From the IMG/VR virus record IMGVR_UViG_3300011113_000123, positions 1-64,000 of that record: 64,000 bases of DNA. The stretch is one strand, 5' to 3'. The translations under genes and the position numbers were made by a program. Positions 46,936-53,429 of the stretch are shown one piece after another. Source of the DNA: a virus. Each line of letters starts with the position of its first letter. Position 1 is the stretch's first letter. Under the pieces are notes generated by a model. It worked only from the letters and a program-made list of their open reading frames with translations. It was not told where the DNA came from and ran no database searches.

Positions 46936-47474
46936 TTAACAAACCTAAAGCCAAGAAGCACTACGTAAACAACAAGGATCTGTATGATGCTATGGTTGCG
47001 TATAAGGCTCAAGTGAACGAGAACAAAGAAGCTGGAAAGCAAGCACCACGTATTCCTCACTACATCGGTGAGTCGATTATGAAGATTGCAACACATCTTG
47101 CCTATCGTCCAAACTTTGCAAACTATACGTTTCGCGAAGAGATGATCTCTGACGGTATCGAGAACTGTTTGCTATACATCAATAACTTTGATCCAGCTAA
47201 GTCGCAGAATCCTTTCGCATACTTTACGCAGATCATCTACTTCGCTTTCATTCGACGTATTCAGAAAGAAAAGAAGCATCTCTATACGAAGTATGCAGCC
47301 ATCGAGTACGCTAACATCATGGGAGAAACGTCCGAGTCTCAGGGAGGTGATAGCGGATCATACGATACTGATATCAAGTATGGTGAATGGTCCAAGGAAC
47401 AGATGGAGAAGTTCATGGCTGACTTTGAGACTAGTAAGGGTATCAAGCGCGGAAGTAAGAAAGCTGCATCATGA
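46932..47474 (+). CDS. gp55: Late-transcription sigma factor gp55
   Basis: HYVNNKDL, IATHLAYRPNF.NY..REEMISDGIENC, NPFAYFTQI...AF.RRI.KEK. Confidence 0.95.
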   Translation: MINKPKAKKHYVNNKDLYDAMVAYKAQVNENKEAGKQAPRIPHYIGESIMKIATHLAYRPNFANYTFREEMISDGIENCLLYINNFDPAKSQNPFAYFTQIIYFAFIRRIQKEKKHLYTKYAAIEYANIMGETSESQGGDSGSYDTDIKYGEWSKEQMEKFMADFETSKGIKRGSKKAAS

Positions 47475-48532
47475 AGATTGCTTTGATTACTGATACGCAC
47501 TGGGGAGTGCGCAACGACCAGCTCGCATTCCTTGACAACAACAAGAGGTTTCTTGATGACGTTTTCTTCCCGTATCTTGATCTTCATGGCATTAGCACCG
47601 TTATCCACCTCGGTGATTTGGTTGATCGCCGTAAATACCTCAACATCAACACGGCTAAACGAATGCGCGATGATTTTATATCACCTCTACGCGCAAGAAA
47701 CATTACGACCCATCTCATCATCGGCAACCACGACACATATTTCAAGAATACGAATTCAGTCAACTCCATTCGAGAGTTTTACAGCGATGACTTCAACATC
47801 TACGAGCGAGCCACAGAAGTAGAGTTTGATGACGTTCCTATCCTATTCATCCCGTGGATCTGTGATGACAACCGTGATGAAACTATCGAGCTCATAGGAA
47901 AGACCAATGCACAGATCGCTCTGGGACACTTGGAAATCGCGGGCTTCGAGATGTATAGAGGAAGCCCCGTCAGTCATGGTGACGACCGCAGTCTTTTTAG
48001 TAGGTTCGATCTTGTATGCAGCGGTCACTATCATCATAAGTCTACTCATGGGAACATTAATTATCTTGGGTCTCATGCTGAGTTTACTTGGAGTGATTAC
48101 GACGACCCTAAGGGATTTCATATCCTCGACACTGAGACGCGTGAGCTCACTTTTGTAGTCAATCCTTACAAGATGTTCCGCAAGATCTGGTATAACGATA
48201 AGGACAAGACTTCAGAAGAAGTTATGGAGCGCGACTTCAGTCTGTATGCTGGAGCCTATGTCAAGCTGATCGTATCCAACAAAGACAATCCATTTCTGTT
48301 CGATCTGTTTACCACGAAACTGTATGAAGCTGCGCCGCTAGAAGTTACCATCGTTGAAGACCATCGCAACATGGATACCATCAGCGAAGATGATCTACTA
48401 GACGAGGCTGAAGATACGCTTACTATCTTGTCTAAGTATATTGGCACGATTGAATCTAACGTTGATAACAAAGATCTTGACAATCTGATGCGTTCACTAT
48501 ATCATGAAGCTCTTCAGATGGAGACTACGTAA
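47471..48532 (+). CDS. gp47: Recombination endonuclease subunit gp47 (Mre11/SbcD-like)
   Basis: ITDTHWG, HLGDLVDRRK, IGNHD, SGHYH. Confidence 0.94.
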   Translation: MKIALITDTHWGVRNDQLAFLDNNKRFLDDVFFPYLDLHGISTVIHLGDLVDRRKYLNINTAKRMRDDFISPLRARNITTHLIIGNHDTYFKNTNSVNSIREFYSDDFNIYERATEVEFDDVPILFIPWICDDNRDETIELIGKTNAQIALGHLEIAGFEMYRGSPVSHGDDRSLFSRFDLVCSGHYHHKSTHGNINYLGSHAEFTWSDYDDPKGFHILDTETRELTFVVNPYKMFRKIWYNDKDKTSEEVMERDFSLYAGAYVKLIVSNKDNPFLFDLFTTKLYEAAPLEVTIVEDHRNMDTISEDDLLDEAEDTLTILSKYIGTIESNVDNKDLDNLMRSLYHEALQMETT

Positions 48533-48717
48533 TGGAATTTGTAGCCAACGAAATCTACGTTGATCGCGAAGGCAATGAGTATAGATACCTTGAGCGTCGT
48601 AGTGGCGTCCAGGTATTTGAGTCTGTTGAAACTGGTACTCGTCTTGTATTGAATCCTGTTGGGCGTTATAGATGGGATGACCAGGATCATCCTCGTGACA
48701 TTATCGGAAAGAAATGA
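48532..48717 (+). CDS. Hypothetical protein
   Basis: 61 aa coupled to both gp47 and gp46. Confidence 0.6.
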   Translation: MEFVANEIYVDREGNEYRYLERRSGVQVFESVETGTRLVLNPVGRYRWDDQDHPRDIIGKK

Positions 48718-50420
48718 TTCACTTCACAAAGGTACGCTGGAAGAACTTCATTTCGACCGGCAACGCCTTCACAGAAATCCATCTCGATAAGAACGACTCT
48801 ACTCTCATCGTTGGCGAAAACGGCGCGGGCAAGTCTACAATGCTTGACGCGCTGTGCTTTGGTCTTTACGGTAAGCCGTTCCGTAAGATCAAGAAGGATC
48901 AGCTGATCAACTCTGTGAACGGTCGTGATACTGTTGTCGAAGTTGAGTTCACATCAAAAGAACATCAGTACGTCGTAAGACGCGGAATCAAGCCAAGTCT
49001 ATTTGAGATTATAGAAGACGGCGTGCTGATTGACCAGGATGCAGCTGCGCGTGACTATCAAGACATGCTTGAGAAGCATATTCTTAAGTTGAGCATGAAG
49101 TCATTCACGCAGATTGTTATTCTTGGTTCGTCGTCGTTCGTTCCGTTCATGCAACTGACTACGAGCGTTCGGCGTGAAGTCATCGAGGATCTGTTAGATA
49201 TCCGCGTCTTTTCCTCGATGGCTCTCCTTCTTAAAGATCGTGTCGCGACTAATCGTGAAGAGTATAAGCTCAACGATCGTGACATTACATACACGAACGA
49301 TAGCATCAGAGCTCAGGAAAAGATCCGCGTAGAGCTAGATGAAAAGCGTCTGGAAAAGATTGAAGAGTATAAGAAGCGTATCGAGCAAGCTCAGAGTAAC
49401 ATCGCGCGCGAGCACGCGAGCGCGTCAGAAATAAATGCTGAGATTGAAGAGCTGATGGAAAAGTGTTCTAACCATCAAACTCTCAGCTCGCGCGTTCAGA
49501 AGATTTTGAGCTTGGAAAAGAGCTTGGAAACAAAGAAAACTAACGCTCGTAAGACTATCAAGTTCTATGCTGACAACGACGAGTGTCCTACATGCACGCA
49601 AACTATCGACATACACGTTCGAGCGGAGAAGATTGGTGAGAAGGAAAAAGTCATCCATGAAATCGAGGACGGTCTCAAGAAGCTCGCGACCGAGTTGGCT
49701 ACGACAGAAGAAAGCCTCGCCAGAGTTCAAGAAATCCAGCGCGACGTATCAGTACGCCAGCGTGATTATGCTGCTTGCCAGACTGCAATTGCAGCCTATC
49801 AGAAAGAAATCTCTGTTTACAACAAAGAAATCGGGAATCTTAACAAAACCGAAGACGCCACGTCGGCGACCGGTGCACTGATTGGGCTTCGTGATGATCT
49901 AGCGAAGTTCCTTGAAGTGAAGGAACGTATCCTACGTGAGAAGGAGATGTATGAACTTGCTACTGTTATCCTGCGTGATAGTGGAATCAAGTCGCGTATC
50001 ATTAAGCAGTACATACCAGTCATCAACAAACTGGTGAATAAATACCTCGCCGCCATGGACTTCTTTGTGAAGTTCGAACTGAACGAGTCGTTTGAAGAAA
50101 AGATCCTATCGCGCCATCGCGATGACTTTACATATGACTCGTTCAGTGAAGGTGAGAAGATGCGTATTGATCTTGCGCTTCTGTTCACATGGCGTTCTAT
50201 CGCACGTATGAAAAACAGTGCCAGCACCAACCTGTTGATCCTCGACGAAGTGTTCGACGCATCACTAGACTCTAATGGCTGCGACGAGTTCCTAAAGATC
50301 ATCCACGACATGGAAGGATCTAACATATTCGTCATATCGCATAAGGGCGATGTGCTGCATGATAAGTTCGCTAACACAATACGCTTTACAAAACACAAAA
50401 ACTTTAGTAGGATAGTATGA
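48714..50420 (+). CDS. gp46: Recombination ATPase gp46 (Rad50/SbcC-like)
   Basis: GENGAGKST, CPTC zinc hook, FSEGEKMRIDL, LILDEVFD, ISH. Confidence 0.95.
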   Translation: MIHFTKVRWKNFISTGNAFTEIHLDKNDSTLIVGENGAGKSTMLDALCFGLYGKPFRKIKKDQLINSVNGRDTVVEVEFTSKEHQYVVRRGIKPSLFEIIEDGVLIDQDAAARDYQDMLEKHILKLSMKSFTQIVILGSSSFVPFMQLTTSVRREVIEDLLDIRVFSSMALLLKDRVATNREEYKLNDRDITYTNDSIRAQEKIRVELDEKRLEKIEEYKKRIEQAQSNIAREHASASEINAEIEELMEKCSNHQTLSSRVQKILSLEKSLETKKTNARKTIKFYADNDECPTCTQTIDIHVRAEKIGEKEKVIHEIEDGLKKLATELATTEESLARVQEIQRDVSVRQRDYAACQTAIAAYQKEISVYNKEIGNLNKTEDATSATGALIGLRDDLAKFLEVKERILREKEMYELATVILRDSGIKSRIIKQYIPVINKLVNKYLAAMDFFVKFELNESFEEKILSRHRDDFTYDSFSEGEKMRIDLALLFTWRSIARMKNSASTNLLILDEVFDASLDSNGCDEFLKIIHDMEGSNIFVISHKGDVLHDKFANTIRFTKHKNFSRIV

Positions 50421-50953
50421 TGTATGATTTGCTAAAAGGTAACGATCCGCTCCTGAAGAGCGTGTGCCCAGAGTTCGATTTTGAACGTGGATATTTCGAT
50501 GAACAAAGTCTTGCCTTTAACGGAGAAGAGTTATACAATTATCTTCGTGATAAGATGATCGAGCATAAGGGCGTAGGTCTTTCTGCCCCTCAGCTTGGTA
50601 TCATGACTCGCGCGTTCGTGATTGGTAATCCGTCAGACCCAGACAACATCATTGGTATCTTTAATCCTATGATCGTTGACTATAGCGAAGAAACTGTAGT
50701 GTACGAAGAAGGATGTGTCAGCTATCCTGGTATGTTCATCAAGATCAAGCGCCCGCGTTCGATTCGCGTTCGCTATCGTAACTTCAACGGAGAAACTGTA
50801 ACTATTAAGTTCGATGGTTACACAGCGCGAGTGTTTCAGCACGAGTACGATCACCTAAATGGTATTACGTTCCAGCAACGAGCCAATCGTTATCATCTAG
50901 AGCAGGCTCAACGATTCAAAGACAGAGCAGACAGGAAGCTGAAAAGCGCATGA
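50417..50953 (+). CDS. def: Peptide deformylase
   Basis: GVGLSAPQLG, EGCVSYPG, QHEYDHLNG. Confidence 0.93.
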   Translation: MMYDLLKGNDPLLKSVCPEFDFERGYFDEQSLAFNGEELYNYLRDKMIEHKGVGLSAPQLGIMTRAFVIGNPSDPDNIIGIFNPMIVDYSEETVVYEEGCVSYPGMFIKIKRPRSIRVRYRNFNGETVTIKFDGYTARVFQHEYDHLNGITFQQRANRYHLEQAQRFKDRADRKLKSA

Positions 50954-52089
50954 GTAACTATCAGCCGTATACCGTAGAAGACGTGCGACGTTCATCGTCT
51001 CGCGAACTGTTCACTGTAATTTCAACGTTCGCTGGAGGCGGAGGATCTTCGACTGGGTATCGGCTTGCAGGCGGGAAAGTTGTCGCGATCAACGAGTTCG
51101 TTGAGGAAGCAGTAGCTACCTATTCGCGCAACTTTCCCGATACGAAAGTGATTCTTGGGGATATTAAGAACATCACCGGAACAGATCTACTCGCTGCAGG
51201 AAATTTGCATCCAGGCGATCTTGATATCCTTGACGGCTCTCCTCCTTGTTCCGCGTTTTCTTCGTCTGGTAAAGGTAAGAAGGGATGGAACAAGGAGAAG
51301 AAATACTCTGACGGAAAGGTCGTAAAGAACATTGAAGATCTATTCCTTGAATATATAAGGATAGCTGAAGATATCAGCCCTAAGGTAATCGTAGCAGAAA
51401 ACGTCGAGGGTATCACCGCTCGCGCTGCGATTGAAAAACTCAGAGAATTCGTAACAGGCTTCGAGCACGTTTCGCCCGGCTACCAAGTAGTCTATCAGGT
51501 GATGGATGCGTCGAAGTTTGGGGTGCCCCAGAGTCGTATGAGAACCTTCTTCGTGGGAGTTAGGAACGATGTGTTCGCGACTCTGGGGCTGGAGGAGTAT
51601 GAGCTCGCTAGACGAGTTTTTCCAGTACCCACTACGAGTGATGGCGTGTCGATTGGTAGCGCGATCGAAGGGATCGAGAACGATCCAGCAGAAGTTCAAA
51701 TGCTCCTGGACTTCTGCGAAACAAGTTTCCAAAAGAAGTTCGTGGAAACTATGCCATTCAATCCTCATAAGGTGTTGAAGCCAGGTCCTGTTAACGGCAA
51801 GACTTCTTGCTTTAACATGAAACGCCCCGCACCCAATCTTCCTTCTCCTACTCTCACACAGATGGGTCAGCAGCGTAGTGCCAGTGGCGTTATGCACTAT
51901 GCTGCGAATAGGAAGTTGACAATCAAAGAAATGAAGCGTATTATGAGTCTTCCTGATGACTACGAGCTGACTGGCACGTTCGATCAGCAGGCTGAACGTA
52001 TTGGTCGAATGGTTGCGCCGAAGATGATGTGCGCTCTAGCCACATCAATCTATGAAAACATCTTGAAACCATATGAGGAATTGCAATGA
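50950..52089 (+). CDS. C5-cytosine DNA methyltransferase-fold enzyme; candidate carboxymethyltransferase
   Basis: Motif I FAGGGG, IV GSPPC, VI ENV, VIII QSRMR; motif X reads IGRMVAP instead of IGN(S/A)V. Confidence 0.88.
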   Translation: MSNYQPYTVEDVRRSSSRELFTVISTFAGGGGSSTGYRLAGGKVVAINEFVEEAVATYSRNFPDTKVILGDIKNITGTDLLAAGNLHPGDLDILDGSPPCSAFSSSGKGKKGWNKEKKYSDGKVVKNIEDLFLEYIRIAEDISPKVIVAENVEGITARAAIEKLREFVTGFEHVSPGYQVVYQVMDASKFGVPQSRMRTFFVGVRNDVFATLGLEEYELARRVFPVPTTSDGVSIGSAIEGIENDPAEVQMLLDFCETSFQKKFVETMPFNPHKVLKPGPVNGKTSCFNMKRPAPNLPSPTLTQMGQQRSASGVMHYAANRKLTIKEMKRIMSLPDDYELTGTFDQQAERIGRMVAPKMMCALATSIYENILKPYEELQ

Positions 52090-52769
52090 CAGGTAAGTTC
52101 ACGTTCGCTACGCGCGAGGAAGGCTTCGACGAGCATATCGACACCTCGATTCGTGGATATGGTGATCTGTGGCGAGACGTAGTTGATATCTCGCAGTATT
52201 TCGTCGAAGATCAGACCATGGTCGTTGACATCGGTTGCTCGACTGGTAAGATGCTAAAGCATATGATCGCGCAGAACAAGTTCGCTCCCCTGGCTATGTA
52301 CGAAGGCGTTGAGATCGAACCTGAGTTCTGGAAGGATTACGACGAAGACGAACGCAACTGGAGTCAGCTCCAGTATCATAAGGGTAGCGTCCTTGACTAC
52401 GACTTCTACAACTGCTCGTACGTGACTAGCATTTTCACGTTGCAGTTCATGTCGTTCAAGGATAGGAAGCAAGTGTTCGAGCAGGTCCATAGAGGACTGT
52501 TGCCAGGCGGAGCGTTTGTGTTCGCAGAAAAAACTATGCCTGAGAGCGTTCGTATCCACGAGATTCGTACGTTCACCTACTACGACTTTAAGCGCAAAAC
52601 GTTTGCGTCTGACGATATCATGGATAAGGAACGTCAGCTTAGGCATATGACCAAGCCCAGCACTCGGCAGGAAATCGTCGATATGTGTCGGAACGCGGGC
52701 TTCACCGTAGTCGACTCGTTCTGGCAGAACCACGCTTTTACCGGCTTTATCGCTCTTAAGAATCCATAA
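52086..52769 (+). CDS. cmoA: CmoA-like carboxy-S-adenosylmethionine synthase
   Basis: FDEHIDTSIRGY, DIGCSTG, FTLQF, GLLPGGAFVFAEK, NAGF...FWQ..FTGFIALK resemble CmoA throughout. Confidence 0.78.
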   Translation: MTGKFTFATREEGFDEHIDTSIRGYGDLWRDVVDISQYFVEDQTMVVDIGCSTGKMLKHMIAQNKFAPLAMYEGVEIEPEFWKDYDEDERNWSQLQYHKGSVLDYDFYNCSYVTSIFTLQFMSFKDRKQVFEQVHRGLLPGGAFVFAEKTMPESVRIHEIRTFTYYDFKRKTFASDDIMDKERQLRHMTKPSTRQEIVDMCRNAGFTVVDSFWQNHAFTGFIALKNP

Positions 52770-52774
52770 AAGCC

Positions 52775-52803
52775 TTGACAATCGACCCCTAAGCGCGTAC
52801 AAT
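52775..52803 (+). promoter_or_regulatory. sigma70-type early promoter
   Basis: TTGACA-N17-TACAAT. Confidence 0.82.
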
Positions 52804-53082: not shown

Positions 53083-53113
53083 AACCCTCTGTTTTTACAG
53101 GGGGTTTATTTTT
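53083..53113 (+). terminator. Intrinsic terminator
   Basis: AACCCTCTGT-tttt-ACAGGGGGTT then TATTTTT. Confidence 0.75.
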
Positions 53114-53176
53114 GGAAGGTGCCATTGACAATCAGCCAGAAACCCCGTAGAATCAATATAGTGAATGGAGGCTGAT

Positions 53177-53253: not shown

Positions 53254-53382
53254 ATGCACACTGAGGCTTTGCTTTACGCTTTCGCTCCCCTTATCGCCTA
53301 TGCTCTAGGCTCAGTTCTGACCCTCATCTGCTACAGCTACGCTATAAGAAAAAAGACCAAAAACGCCAAAAAGGGCCATTGA
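53254..53382 (+). CDS. 42-aa single-TM membrane peptide with basic tail
   Basis: GGAG SD; MHTEALLYAFAPLIAYALGSVLTLICYSYAIRKKTKNAKKGH. Confidence 0.5.
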   Translation: MHTEALLYAFAPLIAYALGSVLTLICYSYAIRKKTKNAKKGH

Positions 53383-53429
53383 CAATCAACCAGGAACCCC
53401 GTAGAATCAATATAGTGAATGGAGCCAAC

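Follow-up and report, generated by a model that had tools for sequence, protein, structure and literature searches.

Does a phage that couples a C5-cytosine methyltransferase (C5-MTase)-fold gene to a CmoA-like gene write a carboxymethyl group, in place of a methyl group, into its own DNA? The question is raised by the first 64 kb (64,000 nucleotides; hereinafter the window) of the 157,580-bp IMG/VR virus record IMGVR_UViG_3300011113_000123 (completeness estimate 90%), which derives from an uncultured T4-like aquatic phage. On its plus strand, a gene coding for a 379-residue protein of the C5-MTase fold (positions 50950-52089; hereinafter cmoX) is followed by one coding for a 227-residue CmoA-like protein of the class-I methyltransferase fold (52086-52769), with the stop codon of the former and the start codon of the latter sharing an ATGA at 52086-52089. 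An earlier reading of these letters (hereinafter the sequence-only reading) had proposed that the phage makes its own carboxy-S-adenosylmethionine (Cx-SAM) and writes 5-carboxymethylcytosine (5cxmC), and had pointed to a similar pathway in a cyanophage. Such a report exists: in December 2025, Yang et al. described the CmoA-CmoX-CmoY system of Synechococcus phage S-B43 (Nat Commun 2025; PMC12783734). Because that system is already published, the idea is not novel; the present locus is one more example of it and no discovery, and it leaves the basic picture drawn by Yang et al. unchanged.

In S-B43, CmoA converts S-adenosylmethionine (SAM) and prephenate to Cx-SAM (kcat of SpCmoA 2.33 s-1, ten times faster than the Escherichia coli enzyme), SpCmoX writes 5cxmC at GC sites, its wild type accepting only Cx-SAM, and CmoY, an Asn-synthetase-like ligase, adds glycine; the virions contain 5-glycylcarboxymethylcytosine (5gcxmC), and free 5cxmC was not found in them (PMC12783734). 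We put at about 0.85 the probability that the present phage carries a CmoX-CmoA module of the same kind, which makes Cx-SAM, carboxymethylates cytosine in the phage DNA, and leaves the addition of glycine to a CmoY homologue. In such a pathway, CmoA would convert SAM and host prephenate to Cx-SAM; CmoX would flip out the target cytosine, Cys100 would attack C6, and the carboxymethyl group of Cx-SAM would pass to C5, with Arg353 holding the cofactor carboxylate where ordinary C5-MTases carry an Asn. The product after replication would be 5cxmC in the phage DNA, probably at GpC, which makes up 27% of all cytosines in the whole record, and up to that fraction of the genome's cytosines would be covered were the enzyme to share the specificity of SpCmoX. 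The CmoY homologue would then most likely adenylate the new carboxyl and ligate glycine to yield 5gcxmC, and the mark would protect the phage DNA from host restriction. For each chemical step, for the specificity toward GC, and for glycine as the substrate, this prediction draws on the S-B43 experiments.

A CmoX-type methyltransferase with a motif-X arginine

What can be observed directly is homology, the conservation of residues, the linkage of genes, and a partition among relatives, beginning with CmoX. The protein was recovered with the PF00145 profile (E 7.6e-52) and is 49% identical to CmoX of S-B43, whose crystal structure it matches over residues 6-373 (PDB 8YF3; E 9.3e-104); this sequence match settles the predicted fold. 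The motifs on which the sequence-only reading was built are all in place, namely FAGGGG (residues 27-32), motif IV GSPPC (residues 96-100; 51235-51249) with the nucleophile Cys100 (codon 51247-51249), ENV (residues 150-152), and QSRMR (residues 194-198), as is the overlap with the CmoA-like gene. GSPPC aligns with S95-P96-P97-C98 of SpCmoX, and in our alignment of these proteins (alignment A1) SPPC, ENV, and QxRxR are kept between the two enzymes. Likewise, Phe27, Glu49, Phe50, and Asp71 correspond to the SpCmoX contacts to Cx-SAM F25, E47, F48, and D69 and stand in invariant columns.

Motif X reads ERIGRMVAP, its Arg being encoded by a CGA at 52006-52008. This residue, Arg353, is predicted to hold the carboxylate of Cx-SAM: counted along the 8YF3 alignment it stands opposite SpCmoX Arg350, which in the crystal structure takes the place of HhaI Asn304 and contacts the carboxymethyl group (PMC12783734). 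A weaker alignment places it opposite the Asn of the GNAV motif of M.HaeIII, so that the Arg does occupy the motif-X Asn position claimed for it. The combination of SPPC and an Arg at R350 is that for which Yang et al. mined IMG/VR v4, UniProtKB, and MGnify-derived phage sequences, retrieving 5,615 CmoX, 4,257 CmoA, and 2,251 ligase sequences (PMC12783734); their IMG/VR criteria would have taken in proteins such as this CmoX. In a DNA-level search of isolate phages, the closest matches were only 100-130-nt patches of ~75% identity in cyanophage MTase genes, and so the phage has no close isolate.

A CmoA-like protein and the predicted supply of Cx-SAM

The CmoA-like protein is 47% identical to SpCmoA (E 2e-77). 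In HMMER searches it also matched CmoA structures from E. coli (4IWN, E 8.7e-18; 4GEK, E 2e-17) and Haemophilus influenzae (1IM8) over the full length, the matches to the two species ranging from E 1e-17 to 1e-13; the full-length fold is shared. The SAM moiety of the E. coli enzyme is liganded by Tyr39, Asp62, Gly64, Ser66, Asp117, Asn132, Phe137, and Glu164 (PMC3663124). Tyr39, Asp62, Gly64, Ser66, the FTLQF motif, Phe137, and Glu164-Lys165 are kept in the phage protein as Tyr25, Asp48, Gly50, Ser52, FTLQF, Phe121, and Glu148-Lys149; of these, Tyr25, Asp48, Gly50, Ser52, FTLQF, and Glu148-Lys149 are conserved in an alignment of 60 CmoX-linked phage CmoAs. At the position of E. coli Asn132 the phage protein has Ile116, Ile being found there clade-wide in phage CmoAs.

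Searches of the whole record recovered no CmoB (PF08003), extending to 157.6 kb an absence that had been noted for the window. They likewise recovered no second C5-MTase, leaving CmoX as the only one, and no thymidylate-synthase-family dCMP hydroxymethylase. Because these three are absent, cytosine is free for C5 modification and Cx-SAM is without a phage-encoded, tRNA-directed user. ParB_N (PF02195), which is often encoded beside CmoX (PMC12783734), and psbA were also not found in the record, nor were tRNA genes in the window. The most depleted palindromic tetramers of the record are CCGG (observed/expected 0.36) and GGCC (0.50), a depletion in line with a general deficit of GG/CC dinucleotides (0.72). 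GCGC, AGCT, and TGCA are not depleted in the record, and restriction-site statistics say nothing on the target.

A CmoY homologue beyond the window

A profile search of the whole record recovered a 269-residue CmoY homologue (G000:C1:68321-69130; L002:1498-2307; PF00733, E 4.9e-15) 15.5 kb downstream of cmoA, right after the gp43 polymerase gene. It starts at a PP-loop, SGGVDS, is without a glutaminase domain, and shows 51% identity to SpCmoY (E 4e-91; 51-53% over the full length). Together with an open reading frame (ORF) for a 70-residue Lys/Arg-rich protein, it makes up a cassette of ~1.0 kb (G000:C1:68119-69130; L002:1296-2307); the basic ORF had no homologue among 170 related loci. With a CmoY homologue in the genome, 5cxmC, the end product in the sequence-only reading, is probably an intermediate, and the glycine amide 5gcxmC, not bare 5cxmC, is probably the end product. 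The remainder of that proposal, phage-made Cx-SAM and its use by CmoX, is supported by the S-B43 orthologues (47-49% identity).

Partition of partner genes between sister methyltransferase clades

We then compared the locus with 80 viral contigs bearing the closest relatives of this MTase, counting neighbors within the fetched flanks. Motif X carried Arg in 99 of their 100 MTase ORFs, the remaining ORF being truncated at that column, and GSPPC and ENV were found in all full-length ORFs. Since Arg353 aligns with both SpCmoX Arg350 and the M.HaeIII Asn and is an Arg throughout these relatives, it is no chance substitution. CmoA was present in the flanks of 57 loci, in 49 of them at most 60 nt from CmoX; CmoY was present, next to the module, in 45, and both genes in 41. 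Among the 24 contigs of ~20 kb or more, 20 had CmoA, 15 had CmoY, and one had a TET/JBP gene.

In 16 of the 80 loci (L010-L018, L021, L037, L040, L041, L045, L053, and L077), a single cmoA follows a pair of Arg-type CmoX genes, tandem in most cases; this suggests two sequence specificities served by one Cx-SAM source. Conversely, some loci have an Arg-type CmoX with no cmoA within several kb (L035, L038, L039, L046, L048, L052, and L056). In the first of these (contig G013), cmoA lies ~16 kb from CmoX; the others may use a distant copy or the host CmoA, as did SpCmoX in E. coli.

Methylophilales phage Melnitz encodes the nearest relative without the Arg, a methylase (43% identity by tblastn, 46% in alignment A1) in which motif X reads ARIGLMVAP and a TET/JBP gene lies directly 3′ (L006:4010-6194). 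We retrieved 80 Melnitz-type viral loci (L097-L176), which are closely related to one another and do not represent 80 independent events. The motif-X residue was Leu in all 80, and neither CmoA nor CmoY was found in any. Of the 64 loci whose sequence extends 1 kb or more downstream, 61 encode TET immediately after the MTase. The comparison points to a clean partition in which Arg goes with a supply of Cx-SAM and Leu with the route from 5-methylcytosine (5mC) to 5-hydroxymethylcytosine (5hmC) described by Burke et al. (2021; PMC8256090).

Weighing the prediction and its alternatives

Several observations weigh against placing this phage with S-B43. The functions of CmoX, CmoA, and CmoY here are predicted from sequence, and it is by homology that CmoY most likely acts on 5cxmC. 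The target-recognition region of CmoX (residues 209-318) and its SpCmoX counterpart share only 40% identity, as against 57% for the N-terminal core, so that GC specificity is no more than likely. The cmoY gene is not adjacent to cmoX and cmoA, and in a relative with CmoX and CmoA proteins 92% and 81% identical to those of this phage (L009/G001; 77-kb contig) the cassette is missing, the polymerase stop codon there directly overlapping the next conserved gene; the ligase step thus looks like a gain/loss cassette among close relatives. The best NCBIfam model for the CmoA-like protein is TIGR00740 (CmoA), with a score of 81.7 bits that does not reach the equivalog cut-off of 193.3. At the column of E. 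coli Asp117, the contact to the adenine N6 (PMC3663124), the protein has Ser101 (codon 52386-52388), the sole Ser among the 60 phage CmoAs, 53 of which have Asp; SpCmoA has Asn. Finally, Glu182 stands in the column of E. coli Arg199, which forms a salt bridge with the cofactor carboxylate (PMC3663124), so that the residue that defines bacterial CmoA is missing.

This last point had been flagged in the sequence-only reading as a shift of the Arg in KERQLR, and the hexapeptide is indeed there (K181-E182-R183-Q184-L185-R186; 52626-52643). In all three HMMER alignments (4IWN, 4GEK, and 1IM8), Lys181 paired with E. coli Lys198, Glu182 with Arg199, Arg183 with Ser200, and Arg186 with Glu203. The seemingly shifted Arg183 is ruled out as a displaced Arg199, its column being R, K, V, or Q across the phage clade. 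The invariant Arg is instead Arg186, one helical turn past the Glu182 column: Lys181, Glu182, Leu185, and Arg186 are identical in all 58 phage CmoAs with a residue at these columns (the other two of the 60 are gapped there), and SpCmoA has the same K-E-x-x-L-R arrangement. In the phage CmoA clade an Arg/Glu pair has therefore been swapped at positions i and i+4, and we infer that Arg186 takes over carboxylate binding. Because SpCmoA shares the arrangement and is active, the swap is no argument against function; the CmoA-like protein belongs to a divergent phage subfamily outside the bacterial equivalog.

The distance between cmoY and its presumed partners allows for a pathway that ends at 5cxmC, in which the remote Asn-synthetase-like gene would use another substrate or amine and the virion would carry bare 5cxmC or some other amide. 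In keeping with this, the gene lies in a small cassette that the close relative lacks, 35 of the 80 related loci have no CmoY within the fetched flanks, and ligase clusters with other predicted amines have been reported (PMC12783734). However, the identity of the homologue to SpCmoY over its full length is well above the ~30% level of the largest cluster, the one that contains the glycine ligase, and the S-B43 virions held only 5gcxmC, not 5cxmC (PMC12783734); moreover, the genome is not predicted to make any other DNA base with a carboxylate. We accordingly rate a pathway stopping short of the glycine amide as unlikely. A more radical alternative comes from an operon elsewhere in the genome (G000:C1:116545-120695; L004:4546-8696), which codes for a TET/JBP protein (469 residues), a fusion of NTP-transferase and kinase domains (520 residues), and a TAGT glycosyltransferase (276 residues). 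CmoX, as the sole C5-MTase in a genome with these genes, could be an ordinary SAM-dependent writer of 5mC that feeds the operon, as phage TET-partnered MTases are likewise GpC-directed (Burke et al., 2021; PMC8256090), in which case the CmoA-like gene would have no connection with DNA, or its sole effect would be to deplete host SAM.

The TET-partnered relatives, however, carry Leu in motif X where CmoX has Arg, and none has a CmoA gene in its neighborhood; wild-type SpCmoX takes only Cx-SAM (PMC12783734). TET is also a rare companion of CmoX: besides its single occurrence among the longer CmoX contigs, it is absent from S-B43, from S-CRM01, and from a complete 204-kb genome with CmoX, CmoA, and CmoY. 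The TET/JBP protein of this phage gave no PDB sequence match at E up to 1, and its closest isolate homologues are those of Stenotrophomonas phage DLP6 (37% identity) and Caulobacter phage Cr30 (33%), in whose complete genomes no C5-MTase was found. Since these nearest homologues sit in genomes without a C5-MTase, the TET here is probably part of a thymine dioxygenase pathway; it fits the described class of ParB-independent thymine dioxygenases, and a C5-MTase accompanies just 6% of the 5mYOX pathways of phages (PMC13229309). An ordinary 5mC writer is, on this evidence, scarcely credible.

With CmoX taken as a Cx-SAM-dependent enzyme and TET as a thymine dioxygenase, the phage may well modify both pyrimidines via separate routes. 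Somewhat short of even odds, and so only tentatively, we envisage that one virion carries the marks of two post-replicative systems acting independently, with 5gcxmC at GpC and glycosylated 5-hydroxymethyluracil on thymines, a combination that to our knowledge is unreported. Because the genome has the TET/JBP-TAGT operon yet no 5mC-writing methyltransferase, cross-talk between the two might also be conceived: the dioxygenase would place a hydroxyl on the methylene carbon of 5cxmC or of its glycine amide, to which TAGT would add a sugar, giving a doubly elaborated cytosine. ALKBH8, which acts on 5-methoxycarbonylmethyluridine (mcm5U) in tRNA, provides an analogy for such a reaction, which we nevertheless regard as highly improbable here.

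Gene neighborhood of the cmoX-cmoA pair

The pair closes a string of plus-strand genes in which neighbors share 1 to 4 nt where they meet. The string begins with a gene for a gp47-like recombination nuclease subunit (47471-48532; Metallophos domain), followed by a 61-residue ORF, a gene for the gp46-like ATPase of the recombination nuclease (48714-50420; SMC_N/AAA_23 domains), and a peptide deformylase gene (def; 50417-50953; PF01327, E 1.9e-37). The last of these overlaps the start of cmoX by an ATGA and is translationally coupled to it; a peptide deformylase homologue is also encoded upstream of the CmoX module in 28 of the 80 related loci.

Five plus-strand sites resemble sigma-70 promoters, each pairing an exact TTGACA with a near-consensus -10 element across a 17-nt spacer (11/12 matches): 48477-48505, 51916-51944, 52775-52803, 53125-53153, and 53379-53407. 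The second (TTGACA-N17-TATTAT) lies inside cmoX, 142 nt before the cmoA start, as a consensus match only, and the third lies just past the end of cmoA. Promoter-like sites numbered 20, compared with 10.6 ± 3.4 in shuffles. A terminator-like hairpin lies at 53083-53106.

Relationship to known systems and implications

With the S-B43 system this phage shares a T4-like genome without CmoB, all three enzymes (CmoA, CmoX, and CmoY at 47%, 49%, and 51% identity), and their signatures, that is SPPC, the Arg at R350, and the contacts to Cx-SAM in CmoX, the phage-type K-E-x-x-L-R in CmoA, and the PP-loop in CmoY. The two differ in gene order (def-cmoX-cmoA here versus cmoA-cmoY-cmoX in S-B43), in the unlinked position of cmoY, whose 1-kb cassette follows the gene for DNA polymerase, in the divergent target-recognition region, in the adenine-contact residue of CmoA, in the TET/JBP-TAGT operon, which is present here and absent from S-B43, and in the absence of psbA here. 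In the bacterial CmoA/CmoB pathway the cofactor goes to the tRNA modification uridine-5-oxyacetic acid (cmo5U), whereas here it is proposed to be spent on DNA; beyond lacking CmoB, the phage has Glu in place of Arg199, Ile in place of Asn132, and, where Glu203 stands, an Arg that is invariant in phage CmoAs.

The engineered M.MpeI N374K, cited by Yang et al. as transferring carboxymethyl from Cx-SAM (reference 21 of PMC12783734), likewise has a basic residue in place of the motif-X Asn that permits use of this cofactor. It is, however, a designed Lys variant of a CpG methylase whose parent uses SAM, whereas the Arg here is natural and belongs to a separate phage lineage, whose characterized member, SpCmoX, accepts only Cx-SAM and targets GpC. 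The Melnitz-type enzymes of the GpC-specific C5-MTase and TET (5mYOX) hypermodification systems (Burke et al., 2021; PMC8256090) resemble CmoX in adding a chemical handle to the DNA of T4-like aquatic phages after replication, and they share with it GSPPC, ENV, and the RIGxMVAP context. They differ in pairing a motif-X Leu with TET and a hydroxyl handle (5hmC), in place of an Arg with CmoA and a carboxyl handle.

For the biology of these phages, the locus means that the carboxymethylcytosine pathway reaches T4-like phages that lack an evident cyanophage character, psbA being absent from this genome. Given the gain or loss of the cmoY cassette, close relatives should differ in their mark, 5cxmC in some and 5gcxmC in others. 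The shift of the predicted carboxylate-binding Arg by one helical turn in phage CmoAs matters for annotation rules based on Arg199. Between the sister MTase clades, the motif-X residue, Arg or Leu, predicts the partner chemistry, Cx-SAM or TET.

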